From Hormiphora californensis (Eukaryota; Animalia; Ctenophora): 64,000 nucleotides of DNA. This document shows, in pieces, positions 25,505-64,000 of this stretch (position 1 is its first letter; every line of letters begins with the position of its first letter). The notes below the pieces were generated by a model. That model did no database searches. It saw only the letters and a program-made list of their open reading frames with translations, and had not been told where the DNA came from. The position numbers were made by a program, and so were the translations under genes. Location of the stretch: positions 8,432,001-8,496,000 of the forward strand of contig CM035355.1 of the NCBI GenBank assembly GCA_020137815.1, read 5' to 3'.

Positions 25505-28500
25505 CTCGTCCCCGTTCAGCACAATAACTGGCTTGCTGCCTATCTTCCTGGCCGCTGTCCTCTTCGTCCCCCATAGTTTTTAGCAAAAGACCCGAGATAG
25601 GATCCCAAATGTGAGCAGTCGCTGCATGTTCGTTTTTGATGAGGATTAGTCCGTCATTTCCTGCAGCTTCAAAGCCAGCTCCTCCGAATTCACAAGTCTG
25701 GGGAACTAAATCAAACACACTAATCTCTCTCAGTTTCACCAGTGAGAGATCAAATTCGAGGATTGAATCTCTCCAGGGGCAAACATAAACACGATTCTCA
25801 ATGTGCGTGAATATTTTTACCTCATAAGCCTCACATTCCAAATGGACCTTAATCGGCTTTCCTTCGAACGTAAAAGTCTTGTCAATTTCCTTGGCATCAA
25901 AATCACCACCCTTAGCCTTAATAACTTGTCTGGAGAGAGCGTTATCTTGGTACTTGTGGTAGCTGATCAACAATTTCTTTCCCGATACTTTATCATCAGC
26001 AACTGCATAACAGTCATACAGACATTCTTCCATCATCTTTACCAAGGGTTACTCTCTTGCTAGTGACTATGGAGCAAACATGAAAATTTGACTGCACCAT
26101 CAGCAACGTATAGGCTCCCAACCAGACTGGTGGGGCTGACAATTCTTCTCCACGAATTGCTATCTTTCTAACGAGGTCAAATGAAGGCAGACCGTACACT
26201 GTAATACACCGGTTGCGAGCTGGTTCATAATGTTTTCCCTTCTGGCTGATAATAATAAAGTATTCCTCTGTCTTATTAAACATGGTTAAAGCCTCTCGTT
26301 CGGGTCTCCAACCTTCAAAATCTGGAAGCAGTTCAATGGATTTCTCATTCAGATCTCTCTCGTCTTCCAAATCTACCACATGGATCTCATATTGCATACG
26401 CCTGTTCATCAAACCAGTCTTTGCGACAAGATACCGTCCACTTGGAGAAGTCTCGCACTGAGAGCAGTTAAAGTGAGAGTGGACCGACACAGAATTTGAC
26501 AAGGTTGATGTAGGTACTTAGTAGAGATTATTTCTCTGAGCATTTTGCTTTTTTCCCGCTTAAAATTGACCCCTCCATCACTGAGATACTTTTGTTATGT
26601 TGGGAGCATGACGTCACACATATATCTCTGTATTCTCTCTGTACATCGAACATGCCTGGGCGCGCACACATACAGAATACAAGAGATAGATGCGTGACGT
26701 CATTAAGGTGTGACAAACGCCCCATCATTTTTTCAAATTCATCCAATCACTCCAAATAATTTTTTGGGTGTGAGGTTCGACTTGAAATGAAATAGTATGA
26801 AGTTTGAAGTCAATCGGATGTAATTAAGAGGTCGCCGATAATTAATTATGATTTTACCTGTTGCGCGAGTGAAATTCACCGTTTAAGTGACTTCCGGGAA
26901 GTTTTGGCGTTCCTCTCTAACACAATCCGATCCGGAATGGCCATGTTTATATAATACGACTTATGAAGCAACATATATGGTCTAAAATGCTCAGTTTTAG
27001 AGTTATGGGCGAATTAGTGAATTATGACGTCACGCGTGTAGGCCAAGATGGTTATGCTGATTGTGGCTAATCGGGTGGCCCAAATTGTATTTTGACTAAA
27101 GGATCCGCTCCGGAATGGCCATGTTTATATATGACTTATGAAGCAACATATATGGCCTAAAATGCTTAGTTTTGGCGCTATGGGCGATTTTATGTCCACT
27201 GGTGTGCTATTTTTCCCAACTCATAAATCAAATCCAATTTTCACATAGTTTACCCCTAGAATGAGTTCCTACGATCATTCTAAAACATTTGGTAAAAAAA
27301 TTTTAGTCCTACCCTGGCCCAATTACGTGGGCCGATGTATGCCCATATATGGGCATATTCATATCAAAAAATGTTTTTTGGGGCGTTATTTCGAAAAAAC
27401 CACACATATGAATCGCCTCATGAGACTCAGTACAACCATTATTTCCAGTCTGAACCTTCAGAACTCCATTTTATAATGAAAAATTTATTTTTTTTCATCT
27501 TTTTTTCTTGCACATTTTCCTACTTTGCAGTATTAGTGGAGACGAATTTTAACTTTTTGAGATTTTGTTTGTCGGAATGCAAATTCCGGTTGTAACCGAC
27601 TAATTTTGACCTGCTGAACACGATCCCGTTCATGAAAAAGCTCTCAAAATGGAAGAAAATGACCAAAATGAACATTTTTAGTCAAAAATGAACATTTTTG
27701 GTCCAAAATGAACATTTTCAGGTCAAAAATGAACTCTGGCTAATTTTCATGATACACATCCATTCTGATCGGTATCAAACCGCTGAACACGACCCTGTCT
27801 ATAAAAAGTTGATATCAAGAACATGCCAAACACTGGTGTAAAACACACATATTTTCCTTTTTTCGGTAAAAAAGTAAACTTTTTTAATCGCCTGGCCCAC
27901 GTAATTGACATACACTACCCCGATTCCGTTTTCAGGATTTAGTAGACAATTGTCCATAGTTTCATATCTACCCTTAACCTATTGGCCAAGTCGACAAAAT
28001 TTTCACTTAGCACACCCTAATGTCCAGTAAGCTACATGTCACGTGACTAAGTTATCAAACAGAAAATCGCTCCTAGCTCCAAAACTAAGCATTTTAGACC
28101 ATATGTTGCTTCATAAGTCGTATATACATGGCCATTCCGGATCGGATGGTGTTCGAGAGAAACGCCAAAACTTCCCGGAAGTCACTTACACGGTGAATTT
28201 CACTCGTGCAACAGGTAAAATCATAATTAATTATCGGCGACCCCTTAATTACATCCGATTGACTTCAAACTTCTTATTATTTCATTTTAAGTCGAACCTC
28301 ACACCCAAAAAATTATTTGGAGCAATTGAATAAGGTCGGGGCGTTTGTCACACCCTAGACGTCATGCTCCCAACATAACAAAAGTATCTCAGTGATGGAG
28401 GGGTCAATTTTAAGCGGGAAAAAAGCAAAATGCTCATATCAGAGAAATAATCTCTACTACCTACAACAACCTTGTCAAATTCTGTGTCTGTCCACTCTCA

Positions 28501-28668
28501 CTTTAACGACATTGTGAATGGCCGACTCTTGTTTATAAACGTCAATTTGCTTCCCGAACTCCTGACAGACTGTGTAGTCATCTTGGAAGGAGCTAGTTCG
28601 AGGTGGTTGGGTACTGGATGGGTTTCGATTGTAGTTTAGAAACAGTAAATCCTTCCAAAACTCGTCAT
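25500..28668 (-). pseudogene. Large exon of a beta-propeller-like (possibly F-box/WD-type) protein, interrupted by a TTAA element and one frameshift
   Basis: Acceptor at 28669; removing 26472-28506 joins ORF 28475-28690 to ORF 26014-26502 in frame (...SAIHNVVNCSQCETSPSGRYLVAK...). Continues after a frameshift near 26045 into ORF 25500-26045 (AHIWDPISGLLLKTM is WD-like). Upstream exons not found. Confidence 0.6.
26472..28502. mobile_element. Non-autonomous DNA transposon, TTAA target duplication, AG...CT termini (Kolobok-like), long imperfect TIRs
   Basis: TTAA at 26468-26471 and 28503-28506; ends AGTGAGAGTGGAC / GTCCACTCTCACT; inverted similarity extends ~500 bp; removal restores the host reading frame. 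Confidence 0.85.
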
Positions 28669-29134
28669 CTGAAAAATAAGTCAAAATCATGAATGAAGAG
28701 AAACAAATTGCAATTCAATTGATGTGTAATAAACCTTCAAATCAAATCAAATCAAATCAAATTTACACACAATCTTAACGCGTGCGGATTTCCCAGCGAG
28801 TGGGTCCTCCTTGTCAAGTCTTAACTCAAAATATTAAAATCAAATCGCCCCGTCAGTCATCAGCAGCAGCAAAAACAGCAAAACCTTTGATAGTGCTGTG
28901 CCATTTCTGGGATACACAGGCGATCTCTAGTAAATCTGCAACTCCTAGTTGAGAGGCGATCTTCGTGAATATCTCATATGGCAGGGTACTTAACATATCC
29001 TGCAGTGTCAAATCAAATCAAATCAAATTCATAAATTTGCGTAACACACAGGATATTTAAAAAAATAAACCTCCTAAAAAGAGTCAATACTCAGTACACT
29101 CACAGCACAGCGACACATAACACACTAACACGCA

Positions 29135-32066
29135 TCATGGACACCACTCTAGTATTGAGTTACTGTTTGCTTGAGCAGGATAACCGCTGATGGGGGGTGT
29201 ATCCGGAATGGTAGAGAGGAAACTACCTAGCTGAGATTTGAACTGATAAAGAGTTGGGGCCTCCTTTACAGATCGAGGCAAAGTGTTCCACAACCTTGCC
29301 CCCAGTACCGCAAATGATTGTTCATATAGCGACAGGTTAGATCGTTGAGCCTCGTACGAGTATCGAGGGACGACAGCACTAGGGCCAGAGCGGTGCCTGT
29401 CGACGAAACACATGTCAGTACTGTTGGGTATCTCATTGTTGTACACTTTCCACACAAGAATCATAGTGTACCTCTCACGTCGGCGCTGAAGCGACAAAAG
29501 TCCCAGGGTTTGAAGACGTTGCCAGTAGTTCAGCCCCTTGAGACCAACGATCTTACGGGTGTACGATCGTTGAATATCCTCAACACGACTAATATCCCCA
29601 TTTTTGGAAGGTGACCACAGTGTGCAACAGTAGTCAAGATGGGGACGCACCAGTGACTTGTAAAGAGTCATCATGGTGCGGCGAGTTCTGGATCTAAATG
29701 CACTTAATGTCCATCCAGCAACCCGACTAGCCGTGGTAACAACTCGAGATATTTGGGCCGACCATTGACCATCACTCGAGAGTAGAACACCTAAGTCTCG
29801 GACAGTGTCTGTTGGATCGATGAACCTCCCATCAGAGAGTTGATAGGAATAGTTCTCAGCACTGAACGGTACTTCTCTAAGCGAACTGGTGTGATTCAGG
29901 GTGAAATTCATGACCTCGAACTTTGACTGGTGCAAGGACATATTGTTAGCGTCAGCCCAGGTTATCACACTGTTCAGATCCTCCTGTAGGTTCAATTTGT
30001 CAACCATAGTACGGATAGCAGAGAAGATTTTAGTGTCATCAGCGAACGACAAAGAAGAACCGTGTTTGATTACGGATTCCAGGTCAATTACATAGATCAG
30101 AAATAAAAGTGGACCGAGAACAGTCCCTTGTGGGACCCCACTTCTGACTTCTGCAAAAGAAGACGCTACGCCGTCGACTAAGACCGTTTGTTTCCGGTCT
30201 AGTAGGAAGCTGCGGATCCATTCAAGGAGTTTGCCCTTAACTCCATATCTCTGCAGCTTTTCGAGAAGTATACCGATGTCAACTTTATCAAACGCCTTCT
30301 CGAAGTCCAAGTAGATTACATCCACTTCAAGAAGGTCGTTGAGATTGTTCAGAATATTGTCAATGTGACGAGTGAGTTGGGATAAGCAGCTCCTCTTGCT
30401 TCTAAACCCATGCTGAGACTCGTTAAACAAGTTCTCTGATTCAAAGTATGACACCATTTGAGATCTTACAACCCGTTCAAATGTCTTGGCAATGTGACTG
30501 GTGAGGGAGATCGGGCGGTAATTTTCAGCTTTCATTTTAGGACCCTTTTTGTAGAGGGGTGTAATGTACTGAAGTTTCAGACAGGGTGGTACAATTATAC
30601 CAGAATCAAACGATTTGGCCCATAAGATGGATAGGGGGTAGGACAGCGATGATCGGCAGTCACGTAAAATTCTGGCAGGTACATCTCCTGGAGGGCCGGC
30701 TGAATAGGGATTGAGGTCATGTAGTGCCTTTTCAATATCAGCGGTGGAGAAAACGATGTCTGAAAGGCTGCATGTAGAAGGAATGATGTTGTCTGCAGCT
30801 GTTGAGGAAGAGTTTGAAGGAGTGCTGAAAACAGATGTGAATTGTGATTGAAACAGTTCTGCCTTCATAGCGGGAACGTCAGTGAGTGAACCATCACTTG
30901 TCTGTAAAGGAGGTATACGTGACCGGGTCTTCCTCTTTCGGTTGGCGTATGACCAGAAGAATTTTGGGTTAGCTTTGAGTTTTGTCAACGCCTCGTTCTC
31001 ATCACTGTCAAGTCGCTGAGAAATGTGGCACAAAATTTCCCAAGTAATTCTGGAAACACCAATCTCGAGCTGTGGCAAAAGGTGAGGTTTATTCTGCCGT
31101 GCAAGAGCAATCCGTTTATTCAAACTCCGCTGTTTCACTTTCAATTTCCTGAGAACAGGGTCCCTTCTTTTTTTACGGGCCTTCTTCTTACGAGAGTGGT
31201 GAGATAAGACCTGTAGAACAGTCAGGGTGAAAAGTTGAACGAAATCAGAACCATCACCGTCATCGCAGATGTCGGCGAGTGCTAGCCAATCGATCTGGTC
31301 CAACTCCCTACACATTTCAGGGAAGTTAGCCTCATGAAAGTTGTAAATATCAAAGTCCGTGAATCGATGGTCTGATTGACGAGTGGGTAAGATACCAAAC
31401 CCAAGTGTAGAGCTGATCATATTATGGTCAGAAATACACGACTCCGATACCTCAGTTTTGAAGACATAGTCTGGCCGGTTGGTGAGAACGAGGTCTAGAA
31501 TATTCAAGCCCCGTGTTGGGGAGTCAACAAGCTGAGTGAGAAAATATGAGTTCACAAATTTTAGTAGCATCTGTGAGCAAGGGTTAGGTCCTCCAGTGAG
31601 TGTTCCCCAGTCTATGTCTGGCATATTGAAGTCGCCCATAACATAGATGTCAGGACAACCCTTGTCGAGTTCGCACTGATCAATGAAACGGGATAGATCA
31701 TCAAAAAGGTCATTCGCAGGGGAAGATGGCGCCCTGTACACAACACAGAAAACCGAGTGGGTCTCCTTGATGTATACAGCAGCCGCACTATTGGACGTGT
31801 CTGAGAATCTGAACTCAGAGGAAGGGGTCAGTTGATTGTTAATGTAGAGTGCACAACCGCCACCTCTTCTACCCGCTCTGTCACAACGAGTTAGGTGAAA
31901 GCCTTCAATCTCCAATTGGGCATCAGAGAAATCATCATGCCACCAGGTCTCCGTAATACCGGTGCAAAGGATGGGTATTGACGGATTCTCCAATGAGTCC
32001 TTGATAAAAGAAAACTTCCACCGGCAGTCACTAGCCGCGGAAGGCGTTAAACTGCGGGCGTTGATG
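29135..32066 (-). CDS. LINE ORF2: apurinic endonuclease + reverse transcriptase (uninterrupted)
   Basis: LINARSL, ITETW, RxDR..GGG, GDFN, LDLVLTN, SDH; NYRPISLTS, QHGFR, YLDFEKAFDKV, GVPQGTVLGPLLF, FADDTK, RDLGV, LYKSLVRPHLDY. The ORF-track start (32098) lies inside the inserted TIR. Confidence 0.96.
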
Positions 32067-35000
32067 AGGACACGGCGTGCCCGAGGGTAGTTTAACATTT
32101 GTTTCGGTGTCCATCTCCAATTCCGGTTGTAACGGTTGGGGAAGACCTTCCTGAAGGTCGTAGCGGAGCGGGAATAATCATGTAGACCCGCTCCGGCTTC
32201 AGAAAATTGAGAAAAAGATAGCTATCTTTTTTTTCACTTTGAAAATAAGACGTTTTTTATTAAACGATTCTTGATCAGTAAGATACGGTTGTCCCCCACC
32301 TATTTTTTGACGTAGAATCGAATGCCGTTGAAGTCAAATCTCTAAAATGTTGGAAAAATGGAGAAAATCACATTTTTAGGTATTTTTTGTCGAAAAAAGC
32401 GTTCAAACTGGTAGTAGATGATGAGATAGAGTCCCAACAAGAATTATTGCATTATGTATTCATAATGCGGTGTTTCCCTGCCCCAGATGGGTGTAAAATT
32501 GATGAATGAGCTTCAAATTCAGATTTTCCGATGAATTTTGCACTATAAGAGCAATTTTTGGCTGATACGATGTTAGTTGCTATGGTAACCAGGGTGGTTG
32601 CTATGGTAACCAAGGCAGTTGCTATGGTAACCAAGACAGTTGCTTAGGAGACCCTAGTTGGTGACCAAGCGCTTCACCTTTACCCTCAGGCCTCAGTCAT
32701 CTTAGCACCAGTCACTTGCAATTATTGTGTGATAGTAGTTTCATGCTTGGAAGACTTGCTACCACGTCATGGTACGGCTGTAGGGTACCCAAAGTGATTT
32801 CAGGTGAAAGTAGGAAGTGATACGAGTGAGTAAATGCGCGCCACAATGCGTATTAATCATTTCCTTTGTTGCATCAACAAAGTGTGAGTTGAAAGATTTA
32901 TGAAGGAGCAGACTTTGTTGCTATGTGTAACGGTGGACAGACGGACGGACGGACATTTTAGTTAACTACACAATCTGCTGATTTCTAAACCCTGAATGAT
33001 CTTTTTAGCACGTGCGTGCTAAAAACATCATCCCGGGTGATTGCCTTCGGCAATCACCCGGGCAGGGAAAAAATATCACAAATCTATTTTTTGGGTCTTC
33101 TTCGCCCTAGGAACAGAGTTTCATGAAAATCTGGTACAACGCCTACTTTCCGTTTGCTTTCAAAGAAGGTGAATATTGCTCTAATTTAGCTAATTTTGAA
33201 GAAAAGGCGTCCAAAATGATACTAGTTGACAGGATAGAGTCCCAAAAACGTGAAAATCATCAATTTTAGGCATTTTCTACCCTAGAAACAAATGGACAAG
33301 GTGGTCGGATGATATTTATTATCTCGGTATGCCTCTGAAGTAGGTGGAAATAGCCACAATGTAGAGATTGTGGTAAATGAATGTGAATAAACGTTTACCA
33401 AACCCACTTTAGTGGGCTTCTGGATTATGCAAGAGCCACTCTTCAACTTAGCAGGTGCTAAAGTGGGTTTGGTAAACGTTTATTCACATTCATTTTCCAC
33501 AATGTCTACATTGTGGCTATTTCCACCTACTTCAGAGGCATACCGAGATAATAAATATCATCCGACCACCTTGTCCATTTGTTTCTAGGGTAGAAAATGC
33601 CTAAAATTGATGATTTTCACGTTTTTGGGACTCTATCCTGTCAACTAGTATCATTTTGGACGCCTTTTCTTCAAAATTAGCTAAATTAGAGCAATATTCA
33701 CCTTCTTTGAAAGCAAACGGAAAATAGGCGTTGTACCAGATTTTCATGAAACTCTGTTCCTAGGGCGAAAAAGACCCAAAAAATCGATTTGTGATATTTT
33801 TGGGACTCTATCTCATCATCTACTACCAGTTTGAACGCTTTTTCACCAAAAAATACCTAAAAATGTGATTTTTTCCATTTTGCCAACATTTTAGAGATTT
33901 GACTTCAACGGCATTCAATTCTACGTCAAAAAATAGGTGGGGGACAACCGTATCTTACTGATCAAGGATCTTTTAATAAAAAACGTCTTATTTTCAAAGT
34001 GAAAAAAAAGATAGCTATCTTTTTCTCAATTTTCTGAAGCCGGAGCGGGTCTACATGATTATTCCCGCTCCGCCACGACCTTCAGGAAGGTCTTCCCCAA
34101 CCGTTACAATCGGAATTGGAGATGGACACCGAAACAAATGTTAAACTACCCTCGGGCACGCCGTGAGGAGTAATTCCGAAACCGTTCCAGAACCCCTTGG
34201 TAGTTGGTCGGGGTGTTCAGGCCTGGTTGTGTGAGTGTCAGATGTTTGGGCCGGGGTGTGTGTTCCCTCGTCATCTCTTCCCTGAAGGACTGTAGAGATG
34301 AGTTCAGTGACGTCTTTACTTCTCGAAGAATCTCGTCCCTCACTGAGGCCATCAATGCCATGAGAAAATCCTCTTGTGAACGGATGTCATTGGTCGCGGC
34401 ACGGGGATCGGTCTCAGTTTTGTTAATCTTCTTCTTCTTCTTCTTTGGGTTTGGAGGAGCTGAGCGACGGGGCTCTTTCTGCTCCACTTTCTGAGAGAGA
34501 TCACTGGTTTTGTTACCAGTACTCTTCAATGAATTACCCTTAGCAGGGGCTACTTCACTTCTCCGAGTGTTCTTCAAATGTGTGTCTTTACATTCTTTGT
34601 CGGTACAGACTCGGGAGATCTCAGAATTATGGCAGAGAGGTGGGTGAAAGTTCTGACACTTATCACCAAAGTTACACCCAGAACGAGTTGCCGTTCCGTA
34701 CTGACAATAACGGATGCATTTCTGGGGATGTTCCTTGCTGCAAGGCTTACCACTAATCAACTTGTCACCATTTGGACCATGAGGACAGTCTCTCAGTAGA
34801 TAACGTTCACAAACATTGCTGAATTTGGGAACACCCTGCTGTTTCACCTCTCCATCAGAAGATACGTCTCCAAGATCCACATCTTTTAGAACTGTCACTC
34901 CACCAACAGGAGTTACCAGATCATCAGGATCTTTCTTGACAGGAGCTTGTTTCTTCTTCCTCTTCTTCTTACCGCTACGGCCTGCCTTCGGACTGATTTT

Positions 35001-36848
35001 GAACTCGTATTCCTCATCAGATAACACTGATTCTGGATCTTCAGCACTTCGGTTGCACATGAAGGTTTCAATTTTGTTGTTTTTGTCCTTGCACGGCAGA
35101 CACAACCAGACCGACCCCGTCAAGGACCCAAGGGTGCCATCCATAGCCTCGCAATCATGAGACCCCTGCTGGCAAAGAAAACAGCGGACACGAGGAGATT
35201 CGCCTAGTTTAACTGCATATCCTTCTCCGCAGCCCTCACAATCACAGGGAAAATGACATTCCAGCTGAATGATGATGTAGTCAGCTAGTGTAGTGCGGTT
35301 CTGGTACCGCTTAGTTTTATCCGCATGTGAGCCGGGGGATGCACCGAAGAAAGATGCAGCGGCTTCCAGGTGGGCACAATTGAATTATTATTATTATTAA
35401 ATCTAAAATTATACATTGAATTACATTCAACATATACGCCCCTTTTTGCGGGCAAAAACGGATAGTCTATTAAATAAGAAGTCCCTTAATCAAGTCCTTT
35501 AAGTGAACAAGTCACTGATTAGTCAGCCACATTTAATTACCCCCCTGCTTATCCAATATCGTCCATTCGGATTGTCTCGCCTCAGTCCTTTCACTGTATC
35601 AACGAGAGTTTTCCGTTCTCGTTGTTCTATCGGTGTTAGGTCGGGGGAGAGAAACACCGAGGAAAATTTCTCTGAATCCCGGAGCTGCTTTGCTTTCCTG
35701 AGAAGCTGCAACAAGGTTTCCCTCCTTTCAAGGGTAACGATTACTGGTCTCGGCCGGTTATCAGTCCTTTCGCCGACACGCTTTGTGGAAGATACGACCG
35801 GTTTTTCATTCAGCTCTGCAAAAATATCTTGAACCTCATGCTCAGTAGCCCTTGCAGTAGTTTCTGGAAGCCCAAACAAAACCAGATTCAGCTTTCGATC
35901 AGGAGTTGCTTCTTCTGATACACTGGAAGGGGGTACAGTTGCTTTTTTCCACGCTGCTTGGAGGCGGGATGGTGCAATAGCCGCTGCACAGTTCTGTACA
36001 AGGACTTTGGAGTAGCCCTGTAATTGCTTCTGAACCGACTCCGATACCGAATTTAGTTTCCGACCTTGTACTTCAATCAAACTATTCTGTGCTGCAATCA
36101 ACTTCTCTTGCAATTCGATTCTTGATACCCGATGTTTGTCGACCTCTTCCTTGAATGTGCCAAGCTCTTCTTGTACCTCCTTGAGTTTCCGATTACACTC
36201 CTCTAGTTCCAGGCGTTCTTTCATACGGACAATTTCATCATTCTTACGTTCGGTTTCATACAGACGTTTCTCCTTCATTAAAGTTCCTGCTTCTCTTGCT
36301 ATCAGAAGAATATCACGACAGAGGTTCTCTGTGAAAGTCATGAATTGTTTAACCATGTACGTTTTCGTTGTGTAGTCTGCTGGCAGTGATTCCTCAATGA
36401 ATCGATCATCGTTCCGACTGGAATCCAAGAATAACATACGCAGCTGTCCATCAACCTGTTCATCACTCGGTGGTACAGTTCCCATCTTGATAAACAAAAC
36501 GTCCCTTACTGCACAACGAAGTTTATCCATCATCGAAGAATCCAAACCTTCTAGTGGATCGGCATCTGCATCAGTGGTCTTGTGTTTCTCCGTCATAACT
36601 TCTTCCTGCCCCTACGGGCGGTCTTACCATCCTGCGAACATATCTCAAATTAATTTGTTTAAAGTAGTGTTGAAAAGTTTGAATGTGCGGATGATGTCCA
36701 GATTCTTGGTGTAATCCACATCATGGCGGTAGGCAGACAGGACCTTTTTGGTGAGAGGATCTGCTGCGTTTACAAGATTTCCAACGGCAAGGGCATTGCC
36801 ATCACTTTTGTCATCAGTAGGTGTAGCCATATTTGTCATATCTGGCAT
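32047..36848 (-). CDS. LINE ORF1 (PHD-like + CCCH-like Zn fingers), split by two insertions
   Basis: Joining 36848-36679, 35379-34166 and 32066-32047 gives one frame: MPDMTN...IIRTFNCAHLEAAA...CEGC...CFLCQQGSHDC...WLCLPC...CERYLLRDCPHG...CNFGDKCQNFHP...NYSSSTPAV*. Confidence 0.88.
32071..34165. mobile_element. Non-autonomous foldback DNA transposon, CACGG...CCGTG termini, 4-bp target duplication (Chapaev-like)
   Basis: AGGA at 32067-32070 and 34166-34169; ~365-bp TIRs; second ~345-bp internal inverted repeat (about 33068-33411 / 33458-33801); no transposase. Confidence 0.88.
35523..36596 (-). CDS. LINE ORF1-like protein (coiled coil + RRM/CTD-type region)
   Basis: Heptad-rich middle, then DRKLNLVLFGLPE...RVG...RPRPVIVTL...LLRKAKQLR...VFLSPDLTPIEQRERKTL, typical of CR1/L2 ORF1p. 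Confidence 0.85.
   Translation of the reverse strand: MTEKHKTTDADADPLEGLDSSMMDKLRCAVRDVLFIKMGTVPPSDEQVDGQLRMLFLDSSRNDDRFIEESLPADYTTKTYMVKQFMTFTENLCRDILLIAREAGTLMKEKRLYETERKNDEIVRMKERLELEECNRKLKEVQEELGTFKEEVDKHRVSRIELQEKLIAAQNSLIEVQGRKLNSVSESVQKQLQGYSKVLVQNCAAAIAPSRLQAAWKKATVPPSSVSEEATPDRKLNLVLFGLPETTARATEHEVQDIFAELNEKPVVSSTKRVGERTDNRPRPVIVTLERRETLLQLLRKAKQLRDSEKFSSVFLSPDLTPIEQRERKTLVDTVKGLRRDNPNGRYWISRGVIKCG
36644..36683 (-). other. Genomic copy of spliced-leader exon (no SL intron)
   Basis: TTCAAACTTTTCAACACTACTTTAAACAAATTAATTTGAG followed by ATATG, not GT. Match to the ctenophore SL is from recall. Confidence 0.85.
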
Positions 36849-36857
36849 GGCTAGAGC

Positions 36858-36897
36858 CTCAAATTAATTTGTTTAAAGTAGTGTTGAAAAGTTTGAA
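36858..36897 (-). other. Genomic copy of spliced-leader exon (no SL intron)
   Basis: Identical 40-mer followed by GCTCTAGCC-ATG of LINE ORF1. Confidence 0.85.
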
Positions 36898-37952
36898 CAG
36901 TGTGATATGTGATATGCATTAGTAAATAGTAGAACACGTCAACACTCAACAAGTACAAATATTAATTTCACTTGTTAGGTGTGATATTTTACCGATACAA
37001 TATGCACCTCCTTTTGATCCAGTATTTTCTCAGAAAGTTTTGACCTTTTGACAGGATTTTCCTCTACTGTGGCCATGCTAAAGTAAGAACGTGTTTAGAA
37101 ATCAGGGTCAAAACGTTTTAGCTCGGGGAAAGATAAATGCCAGAGTGTGGTCTTGGCCCTTGAACGGTCCGCGGTGCATGGCTCTCGCCTCTCGGACGCC
37201 CAAAATCAAATGTGTCCAGGGTCTGGACTCTTGGGCGGAACCCCGGGGTTTTCGGGGTGCAGAACCCGCCCAAGCGGGGTCCAGGGGTTGTAAGCCCCGT
37301 TATGGTCTCGTCGAGAGGACGAAACCCCGGAGATTTTGAGCGTTTTTAGGGCCTTTTTGCAAACTTTTTAGCGTGTTTGGAGCATTTTGAAATTACAACC
37401 TGAAAGGATTTTTTATCGCGCGCACAAACAAAGTTTGTATTTATGCGCCGCAATTAATGTAACGCGCGAATTATGCCCTGAACAACTGGACTCCAAAAAA
37501 TGGGCCAGCGCGCTGCAGCGTTGAAGGCCAGCGTTTTTTTTAAATCTGGGTGTCCATTTTTATTCAACTGTTCACCCCTCAACTCATGCGCGTGCGATAT
37601 TTTAATTTACACTGTGCGCGCTACACGTTAACATGTGATAAACGCGCAAAACAATTCCGCGCACGACTTTGGGGGGTGAAGGAGGAAGATCGTGCCCATC
37701 AATATGCACGAAGTTGAACTTTTAACGTAAAATGATGAGATTTTAGTTACTATTTATTTATTTATTTATTTATGTTTATAAGTCGCATGGGACGTGCGTG
37801 GTGTACCAGGAGTGGTGGATTGTGAAGCCACTCTTGTTGTGTCCCTCTCCCACCTTCTCCGTGTGCCAACACAACACTATACTGGTACACCCGCACAGTC
37901 GTGTTCCATTTTTTCCTTTGGGGGGTGAACAGTTGAAAAAAAATGGAGTATA

Positions 37953-61833: not shown

Positions 61834-64000
61834 TCCACTGTTGTGGTTCTGCTGACATTTAAAAATCCCACCCCCCCCAGCCCTTTCCCTTTTAAAAAAC
61901 TGGGGTTAAGGTCAGAGAGGGCCCCTCGGGGGATTTGGGTATCATTTTGAGGAAAATAGTCTTTTGAAGGTTTTATTTTGCTACGAAAATTTTTTTCCCC
62001 CCTTTCAAAAAATTCTCCCCGGGGGCCCCCTTTATCCCCCTTTTACCCCCCCCCTTTGGGGCCCTTTACCGGCTTTTCCCCCCTTTAAAAAAATTTTTGG
62101 AAGTATTGCCACCCATTTTTTTTTTAAAAACCCCCCCAAAAACCCCGAATTTAACCCCCCTTTTTTGGGCCAAAAAATTTTTGGGGGGGCCCCGAAAAAA
62201 ACCCCCCCAAAAGAAACAAATTTTTCAGCTCCCCGAATTTTTGGGGAGGGAGTTTTTTTTATGAAAGGGGAGGGGGGGAAAATGGGGGAACCCGTGTTTG
62301 TCGGGGGAAAATTTTGGTTGCCCCCATTTAAAAATTTTTTTTCATTAATTAAAAAATTTAAAAATTAAAAGGAGGTTTTTTGGGGTTTTTCCCATTTCCA
62401 TGGTTTTTTCCCCCGGGGTTTTGATTCCCCCCCCCCCCCAAAAATAAAAACGGGTTTTTCTTTGGCCCCCCTTAGGGGTATTTAGGAAAATTTTATGGTC
62501 CGCCATCAGGGTTTTTGGGTTAATTTAAAATTTTTTTGGGGGAGGGAGGAAGAACAATTGAGGGGGGGAAATGGAAGTTTCCCTGAATTTTTAACCCCGC
62601 TGAAGTTTTTCGGGGTGGCTTTTAAAAAAAAAGGGGGTTTTAAACCATGGGGGGGGTTTTGTGATTTACAAGGGGAAGGGAAAAAAAATAAAATTAAAAA
62701 AAATTTGGGGGAAAAAAAAAAAGGGGGAAAATGAAAAAAAGGGGGGGGAAAAAAACCCCCCTGAAAAAAAGGGAAAAACGGGGCCGGGTTGGGGGGGGGG
62801 GGGGAAAGGGGGGGGGAAAAAAAAAGGGGGGAGGTGGAAAGGGGGGGGGTTTTTTAAAAGGGGGACGGTAAAAGGGGTAACGGAGGGGAAAATAAAAAGG
62901 GGGGGAAATAAAAAAGGAGGGGGGGAAATGGAAAAAGGGGAGGGGGGCTGGAAAAGGGGGGGAACCAGGGGAAAAGGGGGGGGGGAAAAGGGAAAAGGAG
63001 GGGGAACCGGAAAAGGGGGGGGAAAAAAAGGGGGGAAAGGAAAAGGGGGGAAACCATGTCGGGGGTGGGGGGGGAAAGGGGGGGTTTTATTTGGTGGAGG
63101 TAAACCCTAACCTTTTACCATGGACCCCCTCCTTGTTATAACCGCGGGACCCCTTTTGGTTACAACCACCCACTATCATGGCAATAAATGCTCGCTGATT
63201 GTATGGTCCAAATAAAACATGTCCAATTAACACTGCTTGTGACCCCGTTTTGGAGAGAGGGTCGAGTGCAGCCCCCTCTGCAAACTTTTCAAAGACCCAA
63301 TCTTCGTTTTTAATCATTCAGAAATCGCCAACCCCCAAAAAAGAGGGAAAAAAAAAACCCCCAAAAACCCCACCCCCCCCCTTTTTTTTTTTTCCCCCCC
63401 GGTTTTTTTTTTTTTTTTTTTTTTTTTGGGGGGGGGGGGGGGAAAAAAAACCCCCCCCCCCCCCCCCCCCCCCTTTCCTCCCCCCTCCCCTCTCCCATCT
63501 ACCTAAAAAAAAGGGGGGTTTTTCATTTTTTAAAAAACTCCCCCAAAACCTCAAAATTTTTAACCCCTTTCCGCCCCCTCCCTTTTTTTAAAAAATTTTT
63601 TTCCCCTTCCCAAAATTTTTAAAAAAAAGGGTTTTTTTTTAAAATGGGGGTTTTTTTTGGGGGGGTTTTATGGGGGGGGGTTTTAAAACCCCCAAAGTTC
63701 CCCCCTTGTTTTGGAACAAACAAAACCAGGCTTTGAAAAATAAAAGAAAAAAAATTTTAAAAAAAAAAATTAAAAAAAAAAAAAACATCCCACTAAAAAC
63801 CAAAACCCCGCCACTAAAAAACTCATTTTTAATCAAAACAAAATTCCAACCTGCCATTTCACCTCACAAAAACAGGAATCAATTTACAAAAAAAAAAACA
63901 AATTTTTTTCCCCTTTTTTTCACACCAACCCTTTTAAACCCTTTCCCTTTTAAACTTTTAAATGCTTTCAATTTTTTTTAAATTTTAAAAACCCCCCGGG

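Follow-up and report, generated by a model that had tools for sequence, protein, structure and literature searches.

The 64,000-nt stretch of the Hormiphora californensis genome analyzed here (contig CM035355.1, positions 8,432,001 to 8,496,000; hereafter ‘the window’, numbered from its first letter) carries on its minus strand a long interspersed nuclear element (LINE), at 29003-36903, whose 5′ end is the spliced leader (SL) of the host. LINEs must rebuild a complete 5′ end in each cycle, and known ways of doing so are internal promoters and, for R2, co-transcription followed by ribozyme cleavage. If the interpretation developed below is true, SL trans-splicing would be another route to a 5′ end, tying retrotransposon activity to the host SL machinery.

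Architecture of the LINE and its nested insertions

Read on the minus strand, the element runs from a 5′ target-site duplication (TSD) through the SL 40-mer, 9 nt, an ATG-initiated open reading frame (ORF1), ORF2, the 3′ untranslated region (UTR) and a (TTTGA)4 tail to the 3′ TSD. The sequence-only reading of this DNA had described an SL-headed LINE between 6-bp TSDs, with no GT past the SL and a second 40-mer 214 bp off, and this layout was confirmed from the sequence. Its term ‘full-length’ holds for the time of insertion; the copy is now split by two nested inserts. The second 40-mer does head a separate retro-insertion, an ORF1-only element, whose position inside the ORF1 of the LINE had been missed. 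The features, ordered along the element, are as follows.

36898-36903, no strand: 6-bp TSD cagtgt, 5′ side (sequence; empty allele)
36858-36897, minus strand: SL exon at the LINE head, the last 40 nt of the published 44-nt SL, no GT after it (match to the published SL)
36849-36857, minus strand: 9-nt leader between the SL and the ORF1 ATG, with a TAG 7 nt past the SL (sequence)
36685-36848, minus strand: first part of ORF1, 55 codons, ATG at 36848 (ORF1 homolog alignment)
35386-36683, minus strand: insert B, an ORF1-only retroelement with an SL head, inside LINE ORF1 (sequence; insert-free copies)
36644-36683 and 35523-36596, minus strand: SL of insert B (its first 5 nt double as TSD) and its 357-aa ORF, followed by a (TAA)n tail (sequence)
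35380-35385, partner 36679-36684, no strand: 6-bp TSD of insert B (sequence; 1299-nt skip in insert-free copies)
34166-35384, minus strand: second part of ORF1, with Cys-rich and CCCH-like motifs by eye (ORF1 homolog alignment)
32071-34165, no strand: non-autonomous DNA transposon with terminal inverted repeats (TIRs), 2095 bp, CAC...GTG ends (sequence; transposon-free copies)
29135-32070, minus strand: ORF2, with apurinic/apyrimidinic endonuclease (APE) and reverse transcriptase (RT), open through to the stop, its start overlapping the last ORF1 codons (Pfam)
29009-29134, minus strand: 3′ UTR and (TTTGA)4 tail (sequence)
29003-29008, no strand: 6-bp TSD cagtgt, 3′ side (sequence; empty allele)

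Seven ORF1 homologs align to two pieces of the window, 36848-36681 and 35384-34164, and the assigned start is supported by the closest relatives (P0042 and P0044), which begin MPEMTNMATP at the same Met as the window ATG. Pfam gave no match for the second part of ORF1, and the Atlas look-up of ORF1 serves as a lead only (0.88; zf-CCCH in 10% of members). In ORF2, Pfam identified RVT_1 (E 6.5e-30) and Exo_endo_phos_2 (E 6.1e-11). The ORF2 frame overlaps the end of ORF1 (34168-34386) and runs open from about 34386, no ATG preceding the start of the endonuclease; translation by frameshifting or non-AUG initiation is possible. A 987-aa ORF considered as the start of ORF2 was rejected, as its start falls within the DNA transposon. 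The four TTTGA units of the tail span 29008-29027. Carrying ORF1, an ORF2 with APE and RT, a TSD, a simple-repeat 3′ tail and an empty site, the element is an APE-type LINE, which we take to be CR1-like from its motifs rather than from RT phylogeny.

Both nested insertions interrupt the ORFs, and the window copy is thus no intact autonomous LINE. The DNA transposon, with a 55-bp perfect TIR (97% over 370 bp) and a 4-bp TSD (32067-32070 / 34166-34169), splits the ORF1/ORF2 overlap. Insert B opens with the SL and a 47-nt leader (36597-36643) containing a short upstream ORF (uORF) and a hairpin. Its protein has 33 homologs, mostly on contigs of 1.0-2.2 kb, a length close to that of the element, and in the Atlas it matches Ctenophora clusters best (0.90-0.92). 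No Pfam match above cut-off was obtained for this protein, which we presume to be ORF1-like from its motifs. With a single ORF1-like ORF, a tail, a TSD, no RT and a multi-copy family, insert B has the makeup of an ORF1-only non-autonomous LINE. Because this SL-headed element splits ORF1 and the DNA transposon splits the ORF1/ORF2 junction, the window LINE, full-length on insertion, is now dead, and can be neither autonomous nor a source element.

Contigs from four public DNA runs (X1, X2, X5 and X9, of which X1 and X2 are one sample) were aligned to 28300-37300. An empty allele, with the joint 29005>36908 and no letters between, was present in X1, X2 and X5 (3/4 runs, two samples) and not in X9. 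Its skip is 7902 nt versus 7895 expected, and a 7-bp duplication beside the 5′ TSD is absent from the empty allele. LINE copies without the DNA transposon (joint 32064>34164) were found in X1, X2 and X5, and copies without insert B (joint 35379>36679) in X1 and X2. Depths at the insert-free joints, which are not copy numbers, are about 8-19x those of unique flanks (for the transposon-free joint, X1 3576 vs ~185, X2 483 vs 63 and X5 4116 vs 243), and suggest a multi-copy LINE family. None of the 24 loose contig ends listed, a further 1663 lying outside that list, is at 36858, which allows no inference on sister copies. As the empty allele has no SL, the SL came with the LINE; that of insert B likewise arrived with its element, and neither derives from the target.

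The spliced leader and SL-headed elements in other contigs

The available text of PMC8527503 describes an H. californensis SL of 44 bases, carried by 56% of Iso-Seq reads and found at 718 genomic places, and the window 40-mer matches its 3′ end at 40/40 positions. Two identical 40-mers lie in the window, at 36858-36897 and 36644-36683, followed by GC and AT rather than GT; no further SL matches were found in the 64 kb when the search tolerated 1 mismatch over the final 12 or 15 nt, or 3 over the final 20. We then scanned public contigs for exactly 38 bases of the SL, a search that selects perfect SLs and so speaks to existence, not frequency. It returned 15 matches in 14 metagenome loci, and no matches in the genome contig and viral contig sets. 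These loci comprise 8 (probably 9) retroelements of three kinds, 4 mRNA-like contigs and 1 SL RNA gene array.

The SL stands at the 5′ ends of the mRNA-like contigs L001, L005 and L011 (L006 being less sure), which are unrelated to each other, while the array, L010, carries two SL RNA genes (SL followed by GTAAG) in a 778-bp tandem unit with 5S rRNA genes; the alternating SL RNA and 5S rRNA genes lie as follows.

L010, 263-381, 698-735, 1041-1159 and 1476-1513: alternating SL RNA and 5S rRNA genes

Together with the published SL, these contigs bear out the identification of the 40-mer as the ctenophore SL, which had originally been made from recall. Read from the SL RNA gene, the SL is 43 nt long, lacks ATG and has AG nowhere but at its two ends. 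The window SLs were rejected as SL RNA genes, as they lack the GT and SL intron and their 5′ flank is unlike the upstream region of L010: 101/200 shuffles score as well against the SL gene upstream as the window flank does. Of the flanks put through this comparison, 5/6 were unremarkable, and L003 stood at 1/200 shuffles over only 36 nt.

Five of the metagenome loci (L002, L003, L004, L007 and L014) are two-ORF LINEs related to one another, presumably L2-like, an assignment from motifs and not from RT phylogeny. L009 is a LINE homologous to that of the window (ORF1 33% and ORF2 32% identical), likewise assumed to be CR1-like, and its ORF1/ORF2 overlap resembles that of the window copy. L008 and L013 are ORF1-only elements homologous to insert B, and L012 is probably another, having the leader motif of insert B and no protein match. 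TSDs were not found at the metagenome loci, where only short chance matches occurred.

The junction between SL and UTR start is the same to within 1 nt in all five L2-like families, at 48-80% identity between UTRs and 43-61% between ORF1s. All 11 element heads (9 loci and 2 in the window) miss 0-5 nt of the 5′ end of the 43-nt SL, and the SL core begins within about 100 nt of a contig end in 7/9 retroelement loci. As in retrocopies with SL relics of the dinoflagellate type, the SL stands at the 5′ end of the retroposed copy; a second SL relic in the 160-200 nt past the SL was found above shuffles in 0/16 sequences, and stacking of relics was rejected on these downstream stretches. In all, these data support the view that SL heads are common among ctenophore retroelements.

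The leaders between SL and ORF1 have features of their own. In the ORF1-only elements (insert B, L008, L012 and L013) they are 38-48 nt long, with a uORF of 1-5 codons followed by a GCCC...GGGC hairpin; the leader of the LINE L009 has a uORF and a weaker hairpin. Insert B and L013 have a common 3′ UTR motif ahead of the (TAA)n tail. Such shared leader and 3′ UTR motifs possibly serve translational control and RT recognition. The L2-like leaders are longer (145-188 nt), and a GT lies at the SL end or adjacent to it. Such a leader could be an outron or a cis-intron, and its removal would mimic a trans-spliced mRNA.

Probable origin and proposed renewal of the SL head

The SL of the LINE lies inside the TSD, stops precisely where the SL exon does, with no GT following, and is absent from the empty allele, all of which supports the earlier proposal that the element RNA was trans-spliced before reverse transcription. 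The window copy very probably derives from an SL-capped RNA, and there is good support for retrotransposition of such RNA. The LINE also abuts the CAG acceptor of a co-oriented host exon, encoding an F-box (see the last section), and the three retro-insertions at that gene share its sense, in line with a possible cycle in which the host spliceosome would add the SL to the element RNA and reverse transcription would reach within 0-5 nt of the RNA 5′ end. Some SL-headed daughters would be transcribed from a neighboring host promoter, with a fresh SL added at the same junction, and renewal at this one junction would keep the SL perfect and unstacked. Some SL-headed daughters would have to be expressed, because families in which all daughters are promoterless could not persist, and the SL must be either renewed or selected, because a passively inherited relic would not stay perfect. 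Exchange of the SL at its terminal AG would leave no trace, since the SL has AG only at its ends. For the complete proposal, in which LINE RNA would receive the SL ahead of reverse transcription and later copies would descend from SL-headed ones, with the SL renewed each cycle, we judge the chances to be evenly balanced.

Several points weigh against such a cycle. The support comes from DNA sequences, with read-through and re-trans-splicing at the SL AG being predicted; the exact 38-nt scan counts intact-SL copies, not SL-less or decayed ones; and the 5′ end of the window LINE family is read from the window copy. The terminal triplet of the SL is GAG, which as a rule makes a poor acceptor. Further downstream, stronger acceptor-like sites persist in the DNA: a YAG 6-12 nt past the SL in 5/6 CR1-like or ORF1-only leaders, and TTTTAG or TTACAG right before the ORF1 ATG in 5/5 L2-like leaders (T-rich, 37-41%, in 4/5). 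These persisting acceptors count against the cycle because repeated trans-splicing, if using them, would have removed them. The sense orientation of insertions seen at the F-box gene (3/3) concerns one locus, and this gene may itself be damaged, having a TIR element in exon 2 and a frame overlap near 26030.

One alternative is that rare masters keep a promoter and an outron while SL-headed daughters are mostly dead ends, new masters arising from occasional unspliced RNA. Such masters would have no need of the weak GAG acceptor and would explain both the fixed junction, as the acceptor of the master, and the perfect SL; the window copy is indeed dead, and our analyses are blind to SL-less full-length copies. 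However, the start of the SL core within ~100 nt of the contig end in 7/9 loci would mark the usual family boundary if the contigs are collapsed repeat consensus sequences, and long-lived, diverged families would all have to keep a rare route. We consider this alternative rather unlikely.

Alternatively, the SL may have been captured once by trans-splicing and may now be an element-encoded head, at which transcription starts, kept by selection, for example as an internal promoter or translation element, so that trans-splicing at this junction would not have to recur in every cycle. In Ascaris, the SL RNA gene reportedly uses the SL sequence as one of its promoter elements. A promoter role for SL relics has been proposed for dinoflagellate retrogenes in the available text of PMC5585692, and both the junction conserved across families and the strong but unused downstream acceptors fit a head of this kind. 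Unrelated LINE groups and ORF1-only elements would, however, have had to capture the SL separately and then conserve it at 38/38 positions, 5′ losses of 0-5 nt should wear away a head without renewal, and the SL gene has an upstream region of its own that the elements are without. One-time capture is thus unlikely in our view.

An origin of the SL other than trans-splicing, either by a LINE hitting a genomic SL (NeSL-like or donor-targeting) or by an RT template switch to SL RNA, for which U6-L1-type chimeras are a precedent, appears very improbable: the TTTGA tail unit does resemble the SL 3′ end, but there is no SL intron past the tail, the 5′ flank is unlike the SL gene upstream, and in 11/11 element heads the join coincides with the exon end, ahead of ORF1, rather than with random truncation points. 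Insertion into a genomic SL is ruled out for both window insertions by the empty allele without SL and by TSDs that lie outside the SL.

Extending the renewal cycle to ctenophores at large, we tentatively consider it possible that LINEs from a number of clades, together with the ORF1-only elements parasitic on them, are promoterless and transcribed from host promoters, with the SL swapped at its own terminal AG, and that most of the ~700 genomic SL copies of Hormiphora are retroelement heads.

Elements beside SL sequences are known elsewhere. SLACS and CRE are further non-LTR (long terminal repeat) elements specific to SL exons. SL-specific NeSL elements belong to the restriction-like endonuclease (RLE) group, according to the available part of PMC4640811. 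Like them, the window LINE is a non-LTR element beside SL sequence; unlike them, it does not insert into SL genes, and the distinction drawn in the sequence-only reading is upheld by its N-terminal APE in Pfam (no separate RLE search was made) and by a target without SL in the empty allele. In flatworms, extracts of two reports describe 597 SL loci near LTR/LINE elements (PMC12582326) and, for S. mansoni, six SL exons fused with transposons (PMC5832876). There, too, a genomic SL exon without SL RNA features stands beside retrotransposons and is read as integrated trans-spliced element RNA, but the leaders are partial and mentioned in passing, and these extracts give no TSD, empty allele or family analysis; the ctenophore SL is near-complete and inside a TSD, and its junction is kept in families that have diverged.

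Dinoflagellate retrogenes, products of mRNA recycling, bear SL relics in stacks of up to 8 (PMC5585692 and PMC3942190, in their available parts). In both systems the SL tags DNA copied from mature trans-spliced RNA, and the puzzle of how promoterless copies are expressed is common to both, but the cargo in dinoflagellates is host genes and the relics are stacked, whereas the ctenophore cargo is the retroelement, with no stacking found (0/16). In Hydra, about 30% of Iso-Seq reads from transposable elements carry the SL, so that element RNAs enter the host SL pathway there as well; that case is at the RNA level, and genomic SL-headed copies are not described in the accessible portion of PMC12220107. 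The ORF1-only elements may be likened to HAL1-type elements, which are ORF1-only non-autonomous LINEs. Insert B, L008 and L013 are similar in that each holds a single ORF1-like ORF and a simple-repeat tail and lacks RT, but they differ in their SL head and uORF-hairpin leader.

In the literature searched, most subscription papers and repeat databases lying outside it, we found neither a description of ctenophore retroelements headed by an SL nor any test of whether such a cycle renews itself; the available portions of PMC7986045, PMC4558846, PMC2566580 and PMC5240408 hold nothing on SL-headed LINEs. The SL-headed retroelement pattern is real, wider than one copy and partly anticipated in print. 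The 718 SL-like loci of H. californensis given in the accessible text of PMC8527503 could be explained directly by such elements. Annotation of SL genes and first exons in ctenophores is confounded by these retroelements, while the SL head is itself a tag for finding full-length elements, and the cycle lends itself to tests with public long-read cDNA and chromosome-scale assemblies.

The host F-box gene at the insertion site

The sequence-only reading had placed the LINE in the same orientation as a gene exon at 28668, and possibly in its intron. The nearest co-oriented exon is an F-box exon at 28885-28999, and its CAG acceptor abuts the LINE 3′ TSD.

28885-28999, minus strand: F-box exon (ATG 28996), with CAG acceptor at 29000-29002 abutting the LINE 3′ TSD (Pfam F-box E 3.5e-08)
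28738-28880, minus strand: 143-bp (TTTGA)5-tailed retro-fragment, no SL, at the F-box intron donor (sequence)
28731-28737 / 28881-28887: 7-bp TSD of the retro-fragment

The F-box exon is probably the first coding exon; a homolog search with the body of the F-box gene found none. Two TTTGA-tailed insertions bracket this 115-bp exon, one at the donor and one at the acceptor, and all retro-insertions of the F-box gene are in sense (3/3). Contigs from X1 and X5 leave the window at 28730, which would fit absence of the small insert there.

Exon 2 of the F-box gene contains a TIR element of ~2 kb (26472-28502) with a TTAA duplication and AG...CT ends, presumably Kolobok-like. It has a donor-like site at one end and a host CAG near the other, and might be spliced out in frame. 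Its boundary at 28507 is crossed by X1 and X5 contigs, so that the element is common to the samples. Further downstream, two ORFs of the F-box gene overlap in different frames at 26014-26048, as a frameshift, a misassembly or a very short intron would produce. At the far end of the window, about 61900-64000, the sequence is homopolymer-rich and of low complexity, resembling uncorrected long-read assembly.

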